DNA of 64,000 nt from a virus (Duplodnaviria; Caudoviricetes): positions 4,941-68,940 of IMG/VR virus record IMGVR_UViG_3300035498_000179. One strand, 5' to 3'. Position 1 is the first letter of the stretch, and each line of letters starts with the position of its first letter. Of the stretch, positions 4,620 to 26,795 are shown one piece after another. Under the pieces are notes generated by a model. It ran no database searches. It saw only the letters and a program-made list of their open reading frames with translations, and was not told the DNA's origin. Made by a program: the position numbers and the translations under genes.

Positions 4620-4988
4620 TTAGTTGGCAAGAGACAGTGATTTAGGCATCTCTGTCTTTAAGACACTCGTACAACTGACTGTCTTCTGTCTCATAGGTCT
4701 CGTTTCTCGAACTTTAACATAAACAGGTCTGTCTACAGTTTTAGTTCGATAGATGATGCTATCCCTTTTCTGGATAGTTACTACGACATTCTGTTCTATA
4801 CCTTCTGCTGAGACGGTATTATTGTTCAAGTTAATGTCGAAAGTTGCCTGTGATTGTCGAGGTACGTCCGTAAATCTTGGGACGATTACTTCGTGAGCGG
4901 TGGAGGTTGTCGATAAATCAGACATAAAACCAATATAACCACCGATAGTTAGCATTGCTAACGTCAATAAAGTATTTACCTTTTTCAT
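4620..4988 (-). CDS. Secreted or membrane-anchored hypothetical protein
   Basis: 122 aa with an N-terminal hydrophobic signal-like segment. Confidence 0.7.
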   Translation of the reverse strand: MKKVNTLLTLAMLTIGGYIGFMSDLSTTSTAHEVIVPRFTDVPRQSQATFDINLNNNTVSAEGIEQNVVVTIQKRDSIIYRTKTVDRPVYVKVRETRPMRQKTVSCTSVLKTEMPKSLSLAN

Positions 4989-6682: not shown

Positions 6683-6756
6683 AATTTTGATAATTTTAAA
6701 GAGTTATAAACTTGATGAATTCTGTTATTACTTAATATTGCTTCCGATTTGGAAGC

Positions 6757-7104
6757 TCAGGAATCATCGATAATTTCGCTTGTTATTGGCTGTGTAGGAA
6801 AGTGATTAGTGTTAGTTACTACAGTGTCACCAGTAGCTGTATCCTGACCTGTCACCGATGTGTCTTCAACTGTCTCTACAATAGCAGAGGAAGGCTGTGA
6901 CATGGGAGTTACTGCTGTAGTGACTACCACATTACTGGGAAGTTCCTTCTTTGCGTTTGCAACCGCATGTTGGAACCCCATACCTACAACAAAGCCAAAC
7001 AAGATGCAACTGACTAAGTTAGTATACATCTTAGGATTCTTATGCATTCTTGCGAATACAAAAGAAATCAATGCTGCAATGAGCAAATAAATAAAGCTTG
7101 ACAT
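6757..7104 (-). CDS. Membrane protein (two TM helices, Thr-rich tail)
   Basis: 115 aa with two hydrophobic stretches at the N-terminus. Confidence 0.7.
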   Translation of the reverse strand: MSSFIYLLIAALISFVFARMHKNPKMYTNLVSCILFGFVVGMGFQHAVANAKKELPSNVVVTTAVTPMSQPSSAIVETVEDTSVTGQDTATGDTVVTNTNHFPTQPITSEIIDDS

Positions 7105-7122
7105 TGTTATTGATATTATCTG

Positions 7123-7668
7123 TTAATAATTTATTTTTTGCTTTAGCTTTTGTCTGGCTTTATTGAGGATACATTTTACTGTATTCTCTTTCAGACCAAA
7201 CTTGATAGCAATATCTTTGTAGGACATATTATCAATACGTGCATTTAGCAAGTCTCGATATTCCTTTTTAAGTGTTGGTATAGTCTTTAATGCTCTATCT
7301 AACATTTCACTGATTGCGTATTCATCTTCTGGGTCGATTACGTTGTCAGGTAGTTGAATAGGATTATCTTCATCATCGATGTAAGCATCATACTTTTCAC
7401 GCTTGGTATGTCTGATGAAATCTATAGCATTATTGACAGCTATTGTCTTTAACCACATCTCAAATGAGATATGATCTGTATAAGTGTTTAATTTACTGTA
7501 CGCTTTTGCAAATGTATCTGCAACTAAATCATCGGTAAGATCTATATTTCGTACAATCCCATATATAATATATCTGATTAAACCCTTATATTGCTTGTAT
7601 AGCTTTGAAAAGGCTAAGTCATTGCCACTCTTTGCTTGATCTACAAGAGTTATTAATTCTTGTGTCAT
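7123..7668 (-). CDS. ECF (RpoE-like) RNA polymerase sigma factor
   Basis: Region 2 (AKSGNDLAFSKLY...DDLVADTFAKAY...FEMWLKTIAVNNAIDFIR) and region 4 HTH (MSYKDIAIKFGLKENTVKCILNKARQKLK). 181 aa, no TAG. Confidence 0.9.
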   Translation of the reverse strand: MTQELITLVDQAKSGNDLAFSKLYKQYKGLIRYIIYGIVRNIDLTDDLVADTFAKAYSKLNTYTDHISFEMWLKTIAVNNAIDFIRHTKREKYDAYIDDEDNPIQLPDNVIDPEDEYAISEMLDRALKTIPTLKKEYRDLLNARIDNMSYKDIAIKFGLKENTVKCILNKARQKLKQKINY

Positions 7669-9630: not shown

Positions 9631-9669
9631 TTTAATTCGAATTAAAAGTTTGATACTAGTAAATAATTG

Positions 9670-9715
9670 TGTGAGGGAGGGATTTGAACCCTCCTTTCAG
9701 TAAGCCAACCTCACC
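9670..9715 (-). ncRNA. tRNA-like mini-element (acceptor-type stem plus T-arm, no D or anticodon arm)
   Basis: Minus strand reads GGUGAGG-15 nt-GAGGG UUCAAAU CCCUC-CCUCACA: a 6-bp acceptor-like stem and a canonical T-arm. Confidence 0.55.
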
Positions 9716-9960
9716 CAGCTTTATACGACATTAGCTTAGCCGTGCTATACTTGTATCACGCAGCGATACGAGTATAGTCTGTTACAAAAGTGTTGCCAAT
9801 TATGGCGTTATGACCTATTCATTATGTCGATGTCACCCGTCAAAACCACAATGCCCCTTTGTAGGATATCGTGGAGCATGAGGGATTCGAACCCTCGTCC
9901 GAACGATTGCATAATGACCTAACAGTCATAGTAGCCTAGGGGGCGATCAAACCCCCTAGA
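9716..9960 (-). ncRNA. ssrA: Circularly permuted (two-piece) tmRNA, predicted tag (A)GNTFVTDYTRIAA
   Basis: The acceptor piece GGAC-GAGGG UUCGAAU CCCUC-AUGCUCC-A (ends 9872) precedes a 14-nt spacer and the 5' end GGGGCAU-UGUGGUUUUGAC (starts 9857). It has the G3.U70 Ala determinant. P2 pairs 9819-9826 with 9910-9917 and 9809-9814 with 9925-9930. The tag frame 9797-9756 follows AUAAUU and ends in Ala-Ala-TGA. Confidence 0.85.
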
Positions 9961-10446
9961 CTTTGAAAAACAACCTTAAAAACAATATAACAAAGTGATA
10001 CAAAGCATTAGAGCATTGCTGTATCGTATGTAACACATTAAGCTTATGTATTTAAAGTTAATAGATCTTTGACAGAATACATATCATACCAAGTGCTCAT
10101 TCTATTGCTAGAAGACTCGATTGAAGTATAGGCATAAAAGCATTATACGTATATGTATTTTGATATACTTACTGTTTATTCGTCTATGAGACTACACCTC
10201 ATCTTAACCGCGATTCGCCACTGCATTAAGAAATCACATTTTTAGCATAAAGCATTTCATGCTTAGAGGTATGATCTATTTATAGCGCATGATCAGTAGG
10301 CATATATTATCCACCACTTACCATAAAGTTATCATGGTGCTGTCAATTCAGCCATATCATCTGCCGTAGCCTCGAATTGAACAATTCCCTGTACGTGTCT
10401 AGATGATTTTCGGATTTAGCATAAAAGCGTTATCCGGGATAGTCGG

Positions 10447-10818: not shown

Positions 10819-11052
10819 AATTGTAAAATTTTAATTGTTAATAATTGATTTAATTGAGTGATTGCTTTTTGATAAAGAAAGATTATCTCATTTATTTGTA
10901 TGTCTTATTCGTGAGTATCCCTTTTCCTTCTTCTGACCACTAATGTGGTTGACCGTTGTATAGTCCGTAGTACTCTTGCTTTTAAGCTTCCTTTAGGGGT
11001 TTGGATTTATAATCTTCCTAAATTGTAATGTTCCTTTTTCATGTTGTACACT

Positions 11053-12079: not shown

Positions 12080-12168
12080 GTGCATGATTTTAACGCCTGC
12101 ACGATCACACCCGCTTGACTAGTATGGGCTAGTGCTTACGCCCCACATGCTTGTCATTTTCTGAAGGA
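12080..12168 (-). ncRNA. Hatchet-like self-cleaving ribozyme, variant copy
   Basis: CAAGCAUGUGGGGC...GUGCAGGCGUUAAAAUCAUGCA. Same core blocks as the 13979-14062 copy, with a different central hairpin region and a short P1. Confidence 0.6.
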
Positions 12169-13359: not shown

Positions 13360-13402
13360 GTTTTCCTCCTTTTTTTAATTGTTTTTAAATTGTTAATTAC
13401 TG

Positions 13403-13476
13403 TGGACCAGCTTGGGTTTGAACCAAGGACCTCTAGATTATGAGTCTATTGCTCTAACCAACTGAGCTACAAGTCC
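13403..13476 (-). tRNA. tRNA with CAU anticodon, most likely tRNA-Ile2 (lysidine type); elongator Met is the alternative
   Basis: GGACUUG UA GCUC AGUUGGUUA GAGC A AUAGA CUCAUAA UCUAG AGGUC CUUGG UUCAAAC CCAAG CUGGUCC A. The G1-C72 pair argues against fMet. The anticodon arm GACUCAUAAUC resembles bacterial Ile2. CCA is not encoded. Confidence 0.85.
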
Positions 13477-13978: not shown

Positions 13979-14062
13979 TGCATGATTTTAAAGTCTGCAC
14001 TAATACTAGTTTAAAACTAGATATAAGCCCCACATGCTTGCCACGGATTCTCACCGTTGAGA
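13979..14062 (-). ncRNA. Hatchet self-cleaving ribozyme
   Basis: CAACGG UGAGAAU CCGUGG CAAGCAUGUGGGGCUUAUAU CUAGUU UU AAACUAG UAUUAGUGCAGACUUUAAAAUCAUGC. Near-identical in P1 loop and core to the published env10 hatchet as recalled. Confidence 0.85.
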
Positions 14063-14150
14063 CAGTTTAGTTAAGTAAATGTCACTATCTTCACAGACAA
14101 TGACATTTTAATGACAAATCCAAATGTTGAATTGTAGAGCTATTCAGATT

Positions 14151-23564: not shown

Positions 23565-23664
23565 TTTTAGATCGAAAGATCACGCTTCATTCTAGTCATT
23601 TGCGGTTGGACATTAACTAACCGCCATATTGCCCATTGGCGTACCGGCTAGCGCACCTGGCTCT

Positions 23665-24659
23665 TAAAACTTTTCAATGTATAATTGATTATAAACTATG
23701 GCAAATAAGATATACGAATTGACGGACGAACAGTTCATCGAATTGATAAAGAACAGCGGGAATATCGCTGAAGTGTTATTCAAATTAGGATGTTCAGTAA
23801 AAGGAAACTCCTGGGGTTATTCACAAGTAAAGCAAAGAATGACTGATTTAAATATCGGTTATGACTTGTTTAAAGGTAAAAAAGCTGCAATTGAAATTAC
23901 CCAATTCTGTAAGAGACTAGACGGGGATTTGATACTACGAGAAAATTGCAGACACTCTAGACAAGCATTACGTAGACATATAATTAGCAACAAGTTGCTA
24001 CCTTATAAATGTGCTATTTGTGGAGTAACCGAATGGAATGGTAAAACTTTAAGTTTGGAAATAGATCATATAAACGGCATAAATAATGACAACCGTTTAG
24101 AAAATCTAAGATTCTTATGCCCTAATTGCCATAGTCAAACTTCAACTTACGGTAGTAGAAACAGACAGATAAATGAACCGAGATACGAAATATCTGACGA
24201 TCTTAGGAAACTCATACGTGAAACTTATGAGAAATATAAGAATGTGAAAGTGGTATCTAGTATCCTTGGTATACGACGAAAGGTTGTTACTATTGTAGTA
24301 AATGAAGAAGGTTTGAAACACAGTAATCAAAAGTACGTTATACGTTACGATGCAAATTATAACGAGTTAAAACGATACGGTAGCTTAGTAGAAGCTGCAA
24401 AAGATCTTATAGCAAACAACGAAGTTATAACAAAGCAAGTAAAGACCTGTACTAGAACAATATCTATGAACAATGGAAAGTTCTGGTTAAACAGTTATTG
24501 GAAAGTGTTGGATGGCTGCGGGATAATAGATAATCCGCAGTTAGAATCTTCTCTAATTGACTCGGAAGATAGAAATATTGACGAGGCGCAAGCGAAAGCA
24601 GCGTGACAGACTAAACGAGAAGACTGATCTTAGGATTGGATTTAATAGTCGTGATAATG
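23665..24659 (+). mobile_element. Group I intron (995 nt) inserted between anticodon positions U35 and A36
   Basis: The 5' exon ends in U and the intron ends in G. P1 pairs 23665-23678 with 24497-24512, with IGS GUU-G-GA. Other helices: P2 CUGCGG/CCGCAG, P3 CUUCUC/GAGAAG, P4-P6 with GAAA loops, P7 GACUA/UAGUC. Confidence 0.88.
23698..24606 (+). CDS. Intron-encoded HNH homing endonuclease
   Basis: CAICG...LEIDHINGINNDNRLENLRFLCPNCHSQT. 302 aa, no TAG. Starts in the P1 loop and runs into the intron core. Confidence 0.9.
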   Translation: MANKIYELTDEQFIELIKNSGNIAEVLFKLGCSVKGNSWGYSQVKQRMTDLNIGYDLFKGKKAAIEITQFCKRLDGDLILRENCRHSRQALRRHIISNKLLPYKCAICGVTEWNGKTLSLEIDHINGINNDNRLENLRFLCPNCHSQTSTYGSRNRQINEPRYEISDDLRKLIRETYEKYKNVKVVSSILGIRRKVVTIVVNEEGLKHSNQKYVIRYDANYNELKRYGSLVEAAKDLIANNEVITKQVKTCTRTISMNNGKFWLNSYWKVLDGCGIIDNPQLESSLIDSEDRNIDEAQAKAA

Positions 24660-24731
24660 AACCCAGGGGGAGTGGGATCGACACCTACATGGGCTACCTG
24701 AATCATAATAATTTAATTTAAGAAACAGTAA

Positions 24732-26795
24732 ATGGTTGATTTCTAGAAAAAAATAAGAAATTCGGACAAGTTCCGTGAACCAGCCCTGTAGTTTATTGCT
24801 ACAGGGCATTACTGTTTATACCCTGCTGGTACGTCCGAATACTATCAGTATTGGGATGAACAGTTGAAGCGATGTATTGATGGTTATACTGCTGCAGATG
24901 GTGACTACATCTCTGGGTATAACTATTTTTATATTAATTTCTGCCCTATTCAGCGTATTGTAAACACAGTTACTAAATTAGATAATGGCGATACTAGAGT
25001 AAAGCGTACTAGTGAGGTTACATTCCCGGACTTCTATGATTACGATTATTACTATTTTCAAGCAGTACAATAGGCGGAAGATGAAGGTAAGCATATCTGC
25101 TTACTTAAGTCCCGTCGTAAAGGTTTTAGTTATAAAGGCGGTTCTATGGCTTGCCGTAATTACTACCTAATACCAAATAGTAAGACTTATATCTATGCGT
25201 CAAATAAGCAGTACCTTACTGAAGACGGCATTCTTACTAAAGCGTGGGACTATATGGACTTCATAGATAAGAATACAGCCTGGGGTAAGAAGCGATCTGT
25301 AAATACGAACATGCGTAAACGATCTGGCTTCATTACTAAGGATGAATTTGGTAACGAGGTTGAGCAGGGTTATAAATCAGAAATTATTGGTGTAACGCTG
25401 AAGGATAACCCAGACGTAGTACGTGGTAAGCGTGCTAAGCTTATTCTATTTGAAGAAGGTGGTTCATTCTCCGAATTAGGTGCTGCGTGGCAGATTGCTA
25501 GACCGTCTGTAGAACAAGACGGTATCGCATTTGGTACTATGATTGTGTGGGGTACCGGTGGTGATGAAGGTAGTGCGTTTGCAACTATGAAGGACATGTT
25601 CTATAACCCAGAAGGTTATAACTGTCTCGGATTCTAGAATATCTGGGATGAGGGTTTAAGTAGTAAGGAATGCGGATTCTTTGTACCATAGTATACTAAT
25701 CTGGATACACGTGATGAGAATGGTAACCGCATCTACATGGATGACGATGGTAATACATATACTAAGAAATCCATGGAATTCATCCTTGAGCAGCGCAGGA
25801 AAGTAATAGAGAATGCAACTAACTCTACAGCGGTAGATAGATATGTAGCGGAACGTCCTATAACTCCAGCTGAAGCTATGCTGGAATTCAACGGTAATAT
25901 CTTCCCAAAGAAAGAATTACAGGAGCAATTAGCCTTACTACGAACTAATAAGAATTTGTCTAACTACAAACAGGTTGGCGATCTTGTGTTTGACGAGTCT
26001 AATCAATTACGCTGGATACCTAAGAAAACTGGTGATATTACACATTACCCATTAAATAAAGATGATGACCCTACCGGATCTATAGTAATCTGGGAACATC
26101 CAAATAAAGAAGCAAGCGCCGGATTGTATTGCGCAGGCTGTGACCCTTATGATCATGATCAATCTACGACTACTTCATTAGGGTCTTGCTTTGTGTATAA
26201 ACGCGTACAAAACTTAGAACAATATTCTGATATCATCGTTGCGGAGTATACTGGAAGACCAGAGTCTTCTGATGACTTCTACGAAAACGTACGTAAGCTG
26301 TTACTTTATTATGGTGCAACACTGATGTACGAGAACCAGAATAAAGGGTTATTCGTGTACTTTACACAAAAGCACTGCGATTACTTATTAGCCGATACAC
26401 CCGATATCATTAATGATGTAGTTGCTAATTCTAAAGTAAATCGTAAGAAAGGTTGCCACATGAATAAGCAGATTAAATAGTGGGGCGAAGGGTTAATTAA
26501 AGAATGGCTCAATGAGGTTAATGCTAATGGCAAAAAGAACCTATACAACATACTTTCAGAACCGCTATTAGAAGAATTGATAAGCTATAATGATGTGGGT
26601 AACTTCGACCGTGTGATGGCGTATATGCAGGTAATGATCTATCGCGAACAGTTGTTCAACGTAGTGGTCAAGAAGAAAGAAAAAGAAAACAAGTCTAGGA
26701 TGCTATTTGATGGACCGATATTTGCGCAAAATTGGTTTGAGGATAAGCCTCAGAGTAGTGTGTTAGACGATAATGTATATACATTCGGAACATGA
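24732..26795 (+). CDS. terL: Terminase large subunit, code 15 (6 TAG), 687 aa
   Basis: KSRRKGFSYKGG Walker A region, LILFEEGG Walker B, and CAGCDPYD nuclease motif. TAG at 24744, 24789, 25071, 25635, 25689 and 26478 join four track ORFs in one frame. Confidence 0.93.

Follow-up and report, generated by a model that had tools for sequence, protein, structure and literature searches.

The locus lies on the minus strand of a 64,000-nt stretch of viral DNA, referred to here as the window (Caudoviricetes; IMG/VR record IMGVR_UViG_3300035498_000179, positions 4,941 to 68,940). The record spans 68.9 kb, is estimated to be 69% complete and has its nearest records in Crassvirales, family Suoliviridae. 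ARAGORN called a permuted transfer-messenger RNA (tmRNA) at 9665-9963 (-) with the tag GNTFVTDYTRIAA, and the Rfam model RF04321 matched 9756-9927 with 48.5 bits, for a gathering score of 47, over model positions 1-213. Both results agree with a sequence-only reading of the same DNA, which had proposed a phage-encoded, circularly permuted and very compact tmRNA with this same tag. The hairpin, P2 strands, GGAC, T-arm, AUGCUCC-A, spacer, GGGGCAU and tag frame listed in that reading were all found on the minus strand where it had placed them (Table 1).

Table 1. Features of the permuted tmRNA gene in the window (positions refer to the window; empty cells, no entry).
Feature	Positions	Strand	Basis
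Upstream 8-bp hairpin, G+C-rich, CTAGGGGG / CCCCCTAG	9936..9959	-	sequence and minimum-free-energy fold
Acceptor piece	9872..9930	-	ARAGORN, RF04321 alignment, covariation of T stem, acceptor stem and P2
P2 strands, acceptor piece	9927-9901	-	sequence
P2c strand, acceptor piece, (UAU)GACU	9927-9924	-	
P2b strand, acceptor piece, UCAUUAU	9917-9911	-	
P2a strand, acceptor piece, UCGUUC	9906-9901	-	
GGAC	9900-9897	-	sequence
T arm, GAGGG-UUCGAAU-CCCUC	9896-9880	-	sequence
Acceptor 3' strand, AUGCUCC	9879-9873	-	
Discriminator A73	9872	-	
Spacer between A73 and G1, 14 nt, CGAUAUCCUACAAA	9858..9871	-	sequence
Coding piece, 5' part	9798..9857	-	sequence, RF04321 alignment, covariation
Acceptor 5' strand, GGGGCAU, G3 paired with U70	9857-9851	-	
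D-loop analogue, UUGUGGUUUUGAC, directly after GGGGCAU		-	
P2 strands, coding piece	9838-9812	-	sequence
P2a strand, coding piece, GGGUGA	9838-9833	-	
P2b strand, coding piece, AUAAUGA	9825-9819	-	
P2c strand, coding piece, GGUC	9815-9812	-	
Single-stranded leader, 14 nt, 3' end AUAAUU, between P2c and resume codon		-	
Resume codon GGC, AUAAUU just before	9797-9795	-	
Tag frame, GGC AAC ACU UUU GUA ACA GAC UAU ACU CGU AUC GCU GCG UGA (GNTFVTDYTRIAA, stop)	9756..9797	-	ARAGORN
Tag stop TGA	9758-9756	-	
Helix-5-like hairpin around last tag codons and stop, CUAUAC..GUAUC / GAUAC..GUAUAG	9745..9777	-	minimum-free-energy fold
Post-tag block, ACGGCUAAGCUAAUGUCGU	9725..9743	-	identical in 65/65 aligned copies
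Armless tRNA-like minihelix, stem GUGAGG/CCUCAC on T arm GAGGG-UUCAAAU-CCCUC	9665..9717	-	within ARAGORN call

The gene has the parts by which a tmRNA is recognised. The D-loop analogue ends in GAC (UGGUUUUGAC), the T arm is preceded by GGAC, and a P2 helix links the tRNA-like domain to an mRNA-like domain whose internal frame of 13 codons has no start codon, ends in Ala-Ala and stops at UGA. The acceptor stem GGGGCAU/AUGCUCC carries G3.U70 and A73, the AlaRS identity elements already pointed out from the letters, and these are fixed among the relatives. The acceptor 3' strand stands upstream of its 5' strand and the score lies above the gathering threshold, as RF04321 membership implies. The earlier statement that CCA is not encoded holds for the full CCA but not for its first C, which is encoded after A73 in the window and in 78/78 parsed relatives. 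The 304-nt precursor is predicted to fold at -110.5 kcal/mol (z = -5.76 against shuffles), and the minimum-free-energy fold recovers the acceptor stem, P2b, P2c, the stop-codon hairpin and the upstream 8-bp hairpin. The latter may serve to protect the 5' end; it lacks conservation among relatives, its region being variable in the 65-copy alignment. The pseudoknots PK1-PK4 are absent, as 14 nt lead from P2c to the resume codon, and helix 5 is followed by a single short conserved hairpin, after which comes the tRNA-like end.

Considering these features together with the comparative data below, we propose that the locus encodes a functional two-piece tmRNA and belongs to a Suoliviridae-type crAss-like phage, with a probability of about four in five. 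Some observations weigh against this proposal: the margin over the RF04321 threshold is just 1.5 bits and several relatives score under it, all four pseudoknots of the standard tmRNA are gone, and some relatives have non-canonical T loops (GGCAGUA, UAUCGUAU).

We searched for relatives of the gene. BLASTN found the locus in ten phage records, and in four RefSeq Suoliviridae the homologous gene is already annotated as "tmRNA, SsrA": cr114_1 (NC_055897.1 19180-19622), cr125_1 (NC_055900.1 87913-88362), cr60_1 (NC_055891.1 12121-12567) and cr52_1 (NC_055888.1 81171-81551). Their identity to the window is about 76-80% over 43-60% of the 451-nt query, ARAGORN calls all four permuted, and their tags are related to that of the window (GNFYVTDYTRIAA, GNTSYVMDYTRLAA, GNTSYVTDYTRLVA). 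The permuted order, the helices, the post-tag block and a sigma factor downstream (7123-7668 in the window, Pfam) are common to all five phages. They differ in the spacer, which is 14 nt and without tRNA-His in the window whereas it measures 93-166 nt in the four annotated phages, in the downstream tRNA, which the window has cut down to an armless minihelix, and in P2a, whose sequence GGGUGA/UCGUUC is unlike theirs. The gene is thus a new member of a publicly annotated phage tmRNA family, and the existence of tmRNA in crAss-like phages is not new; the window copy stands out by its minimal spacer of 14 nt and by an armless marker of the 3' end. In the literature on tmRNA in crAss-like phages we found no describing paper, the titles being of the tool, methods or catalogue type, and in those read tmRNA comes up as an annotation step only. 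RefSeq has no tmRNA annotation at the corresponding site of cr6_1, cr53_1, cr109_1 and cr113_1.

The post-tag block used as a search key gave matches on more than 116 IMG/VR contigs, mainly from gut and of about 50-185 kb. We parsed 118 family loci, of which ARAGORN recognises 52 as tmRNA, every one permuted; the tag analysis covered 124 loci (45 distinct ORFs) and the alignment (A2) 65 distinct copies. The window copy belongs to this Suoliviridae family by homology, by the blocks TGACTGTTAGGTC and GCTAAGCTAATGTCG and by its ...DYT..A tag. Among 185,579 species-representative genomes, the two-block pattern occurred in only five MAG contigs of inconsistent taxonomy, two of ~100 kb and three under 5 kb. 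The two long ones, in MAGs labelled Mollicutes and Sphaerochaeta (L153, MSHB01000026.1, 100,908 nt; L154, MSGT01000071.1, 100,100 nt), have the length of a crAss-like genome and are therefore probably mis-binned crAss-like phages. The element is essentially confined to phage-type contigs. Another pattern, GGTTCGAWTCCCTCATGCTCCA, was non-specific as a family probe, also matching phage tRNA-Ala genes and unrelated one-piece phage tmRNAs. On two unrelated environmental viral contigs (L006 836-1228 and L008 304-695) we observed one-piece tmRNAs, with the tags ANVELSTWTFEDAMAFAEGELEMAA and ANVELSTWTFEDAMAFCEGELAVAA, that agree exactly with the window copy in the T arm and at the acceptor 3' end.

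The 65 distinct copies allowed us to look for compensated changes. The T stem is 100% paired with both sides changed at 4/5 pairs, and in the acceptor stem pairing reaches 90.5% and 4/7 pairs have changed on both sides, the unpaired cells being by eye one-column alignment offsets. Eight acceptor-stem variants were counted among 78 relatives, all with G1-C72, G2-C71, G3.U70 and A73, and in every copy the acceptor 3' strand lies upstream of the 5' strand. All of P2c (100%) is paired, one copy (L130) showing a double compensation (GACU/GGUC to AGCU/GGCU), and P2a pairs at 72%, with both sides changed at 3 pairs. In an anchored analysis, pairs 3 and 4 of P2b switch from U-A/A-U to A-U/U-A in 14/65 copies (versus 51) with zero mismatch. 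None of 500 shuffles attained the observed covariation score (0.151 versus 0.068), and slid controls gave 0.04-0.08. Therefore, the tmRNA structure is under selection. The stop-codon hairpin is also kept in relatives with altered sequence (e.g., GAUUAC/GUAAUC, CGUAUU/AAUACG), although its column-wise covariation counts are weak owing to register shifts in the alignment.

The post-tag block is more conserved than the tRNA-like domain. It could possibly form a 5-bp hairpin, ACGGC/GUCGU; being identical in 65/65 copies, it gives covariation nothing to inform. Two further pairings were tried and rejected. For the invariant acceptor-piece block GACUGUUAG, a "closing helix" with the post-tag sequence CUAAUGUC was not supported, since the GAC to AGC change of L130 is uncompensated in the post-tag block and compensated in P2c, and just UUAG/CUAA (4 bp) of this helix is left in Boorivirinae. 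A pseudoknot between the post-tag loop AGCU and a downstream AGCU was discarded because the downstream copy varies to AGCA, AGCC, AGCG or AGUA without compensation. We also noticed a subfamily (L039, L086, L091, L109, L117, L148, L111, L141) with spacers of 15-18 nt that ARAGORN does not call; its T stem is CGCGG/CCGCG with the non-canonical T loop GGCAGUA or GGCAGUG, and its acceptor stems are GGGUGUG or GGGGAUG.

These data bear on whether the locus could be a tmRNA-like remnant, decaying or there by chance and without a function today, for instance host DNA picked up by faulty excision. Prophages do hold ssrA fragments, considering that tmRNA genes are integration sites (PMC9004378), and the Rfam score is marginal. 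However, the gene is a complete one in the permuted order, four Suoliviridae subfamilies conserve it with covariation, and bacterial genome bins yielded only the five taxonomically inconsistent contigs. We consider a remnant very improbable.

Spacer length varies from 14 to about 600 nt in the family, the window copy having the shortest of 78. The spacer of cr114_1 holds a tRNA-His. In cr113_1 (L032, 511-1092) the spacer contains an antisense endonuclease ORF and the halves are ~600 nt apart, and in cr56_1 (W07, 6731-7560) they are about 640 nt apart; neither gene had an ARAGORN call nor an RF04321 match at the E-value limits used. From these comparisons the spacer is dispensable and variable, and it is almost certainly cut out, considering that CCA completion and alanylation need a free 3' end. 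RNase P and the 3' trimming enzymes are the putative processing activities, given that a tRNA can lie within the spacer and that the coding piece is directly followed by a tRNA or a tRNA-like element. Where the window has its armless minihelix, cr60_1 has a tRNA-Leu (UAA among relatives), 9 loci have a tRNA-Ile(GAT), and elsewhere ARAGORN gives odd tRNA-like calls with a two-base anticodon. The minihelix stem shows compensated changes among relatives; we also observed that the acceptor-like stem is extended to 8 bp, its second pair being a conserved G.A mismatch (UGG-GUGAGG ... CCUCAC-ACA). Judging from this pattern, RNase P probably takes the minihelix as its mark for where the coding piece has its 3' end.

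In two relatives, the T arm itself is split by an insert of ~870 nt: cr6_1 (L029, NC_055894.1, about 83-1011) and cr4_1 (L165, NC_055893.1, about 1150-1560, -). The cr6_1 gene is split after GGGUU, where GGGUU/GACCC gives a P1-like pairing and the junction has a U.G, and that of cr4_1 after GGGUUCGACUC. The inserts have long near-identical stretches by eye, and an endonuclease gene lies antisense in that of cr6_1. Both inserts resemble group I introns, placed at two different T-loop positions, which would make these tmRNA genes both permuted and intron-bearing. BLAST gave no match between them and the intron of the window at about 23630-24696, and neither split gene has a tmRNA annotation at its site.

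The tag frame, whose translatability had been claimed from the window alone, is open in 124/124 loci with 13-14 codons, and its length changes by whole codons. The first codon is GGC in 93 loci and GAC in 31; the last residue is always Ala (AA in 84 loci, VA in 33, TA in 4, SA in 3), and the stops are TGA (75) and TAA (49), with no TAG. Pairwise differences between tags fall mainly on third positions (1635 versus 904 and 780 at the other two). This substitution pattern indicates that the tag is read. It also bears on another explanation, in which the RNA would be a decoy tying up host SmpB, AlaRS or ribosomes and so blocking host trans-translation. A precedent exists in mycobacteriophage DS6A, whose tmRNA-like RNA has no CDS and inhibits E. 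coli tmRNA (PMC11915505), and the phage RNA studied here has no pseudoknots and comes from a phage without detected SmpB. Unlike the DS6A form, the window gene has a tag frame, and an open frame with mainly third-position change, in-frame indels and an Ala end in 124 loci would be needless for a pure decoy, which makes this explanation quite unlikely.

The sequence-only reading had linked the gene to TAG recoding. In the strict form of this idea the tmRNA would exist specifically for it, rescuing ribosomes at TAG before a suppressor tRNA is active or, after suppression has set in, upon read-through of host TAG stops. The plus-strand late genes of the window need TAG as an amino acid, with 6 in-frame TAG in the terminase (24732-26795) and 18 in a 1319-aa ORF. 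The tmRNA sits in a minus-strand block showing almost no TAG read-through. Eight tmRNA-bearing relatives (cr114_1, cr125_1, cr60_1, cr52_1, cr53_1, cr4_1, cr56_1 and cr115_1) have between 6 and 13 in-frame TAG in each matched late gene. UAG is avoided as tag stop in all 124 loci, which fits use in recoded cells, and ribosome rescue is reported to resolve part of the unassigned UAG codons in recoded E. coli (PMC6207430). On the other hand, cr10_1 and cr50_1 (Boorivirinae) have 0 in-frame TAG in the terminase or in a neighbouring 831-aa protein and carry the same tmRNA family (RF04321 49.6 and 60.3 bits; tags GNNFVTDYTAIGA and GNNFVTDYTQLAVA; both with UAA stops). It follows that the gene is older than recoding or does not depend on it, and the link was not supported in the form given. 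A tmRNA existing specifically for recoding is unlikely; a role of this kind is possible and not required by our proposal.

With the two-piece tmRNA as the preferred reading, its working can be outlined, the inferred steps being the processing, the charging, the recourse to the SmpB of the host and what becomes of tagged proteins. A single minus-strand precursor would come from the block that also has a tRNA-Met, two hatchet ribozymes and a RAGATH-9 RNA. Host tRNA-processing enzymes would cut it, RNase P acting 5' of G1 (9857) and probably a second time at the minihelix downstream; the 14-nt trailer past A73-C would be trimmed and the CCA end completed by the host CCA-adding enzyme. The 7-bp acceptor stem and P2a-c would keep an acceptor piece of about 60-90 nt joined to a coding piece of about 140 nt. 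Host AlaRS would charge the RNA via G3.U70 and A73, and host SmpB and EF-Tu would deliver it to stalled ribosomes. Translation would resume at GGC, adding (A)GNTFVTDYTRIAA, a degron-like tail, and the ribosome would be released at UGA. The benefit is most likely ribosome recycling during infection with a phage-specific tag. No SmpB was found in the 68.9-kb record, as the sequence-only reading had reported for the window, nor in five complete relatives; function would thus depend on the fit of the host protein.

The surroundings of the gene were inspected too. In its block, a RAGATH-9 RNA, two hatchet ribozymes and a tRNA-Met lie at 10876-11030, 12082-12168, 13402-13476 and 13980-14063 (all -), and the block may be an RNA island whose long precursors are cut by ribozymes and tRNA-processing enzymes. 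The ~480 nt upstream of the tmRNA (9964-10446) contain no ORF of at least 40 aa on either strand, and the small flanking ORFs have no Pfam match besides the sigma factor. A sigma-70 promoter and terminator scan around the tmRNA, whose scope excludes Bacteroidota promoters, gave nothing above shuffles.

Regarding origin, tmRNA genes in phages have precedents. Mycobacteriophages and huge phages carry this ribosome-rescue RNA (PMC11915505, PMC7162821), the huge-phage set including SmpB, unlike the record studied here, and a 2025 tmRNA database took in RefSeq viruses (PMC11915505). Two-piece tmRNAs, whose intervening segment is removed by tRNA-processing enzymes and whose pieces are base-paired together (PMC11915505, PMC9004378), occur in Alphaproteobacteria, Betaproteobacteria, Cyanobacteria and certain marine phages. 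The window gene shares their circular permutation and fits the merged model RF04321. Among the permuted-tmRNA models, whose use had been suggested from the letters, RF04321 was the one passed, narrowly; RF01851 gave 37.5 versus 70 bits (positions 52-124, the tRNA-like domain only) and RF01850 6.3 versus 84, and the alphaproteobacterial RF01849 was not listed, the tool suppressing overlapping clan matches. Marine phages such as Melnitz, pelagimyophages and cyanophages carry two-piece genes that group with alpha-, gammaproteobacterial and cyanobacterial two-piece lineages (PMC9004378), and these genes therefore look acquired already permuted.

The comparison with Bacteroidota was made using tags of the form GENNYALAA or GETNYALAA, which we take to be typical of this phylum. 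The degenerate pattern led to 120 metagenome contigs and to 101 ARAGORN tmRNAs, and, unlike the marine phage case, 101/101 were one-piece (standard), with a mean of 396 nt. The 5' consensus of these genes, GGGGcTGACTGGtTTTGACAGCgaG (GG.TTTGACAGCG), is close to that of the phage family, GGGGCATtATGGTTTTGACAGCGAc, with GGGG...GGTTTTGACAGCG in common; likewise, the 3' consensus GTTTGGACGAGGGTTCGAaTCCCTCCAGCTCCAC is close to GTTTGGACGAGGGTTCGAcTCCCTCATGCTCCAC, with GTTTGGACGAGGGTTCGA.TCCCTC..GCTCCAC in common. The resume context TAAYT|GGC (Gly) occurs in 41/101 Bacteroidota one-piece genes and in 54/65 phage copies. A73 is followed by C in the phage copies and in the majority of the Bacteroidota genes, full CCA being rare in the latter and absent from the former. 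The mRNA-like parts have no detectable similarity between the two sets: the Bacteroidota RNA, of about 396 nt, has the normal order and pseudoknots, whereas the phage RNA is permuted, has about 200-230 nt in total and no PK1-PK4.

An independent permutation, as suggested before, is plausible in view of the tRNA-like domain, resume context and A73-C gene end shared with one-piece Bacteroidota tmRNA. Judged by these shared stretches, the gene most likely descends from such a one-piece tmRNA, permuted and stripped of pseudoknots in the phage lineage. The same match and the failure of the cyanobacterial and betaproteobacterial models speak for a putative separate permutation of a Bacteroidota-type gene. 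We slightly favour the broader view that the Suoliviridae tmRNA would represent a separate, phage-borne two-piece origin, beside the alpha-, beta-, cyanobacterial and mitochondrial lineages, taken from a Bacteroidota one-piece gene, pared to a pseudoknot-free ~200-230 nt and released by tRNA punctuation, with a spacer in which a tRNA can lie and a tRNA-like element to mark the 3' end. If this is true, the window copy, with its 14-nt spacer and armless end marker, would be the minimal natural substrate.

In conclusion, the value of the analysis is in the anatomy of the gene and in experimental leads and not in discovery. From a practical point of view, fewer than half of the parsed loci are called by ARAGORN, and several RefSeq relatives are unlabelled at this site. 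The minimal pseudoknot-free two-piece build offers a natural test of what a tmRNA requires, and the family is a likely independent case of gene permutation. For the biology of these viruses, the comparisons suggest that a family of abundant human-gut phages would bring its own ribosome-rescue RNA and tag into the cell, relying on the SmpB of the host.
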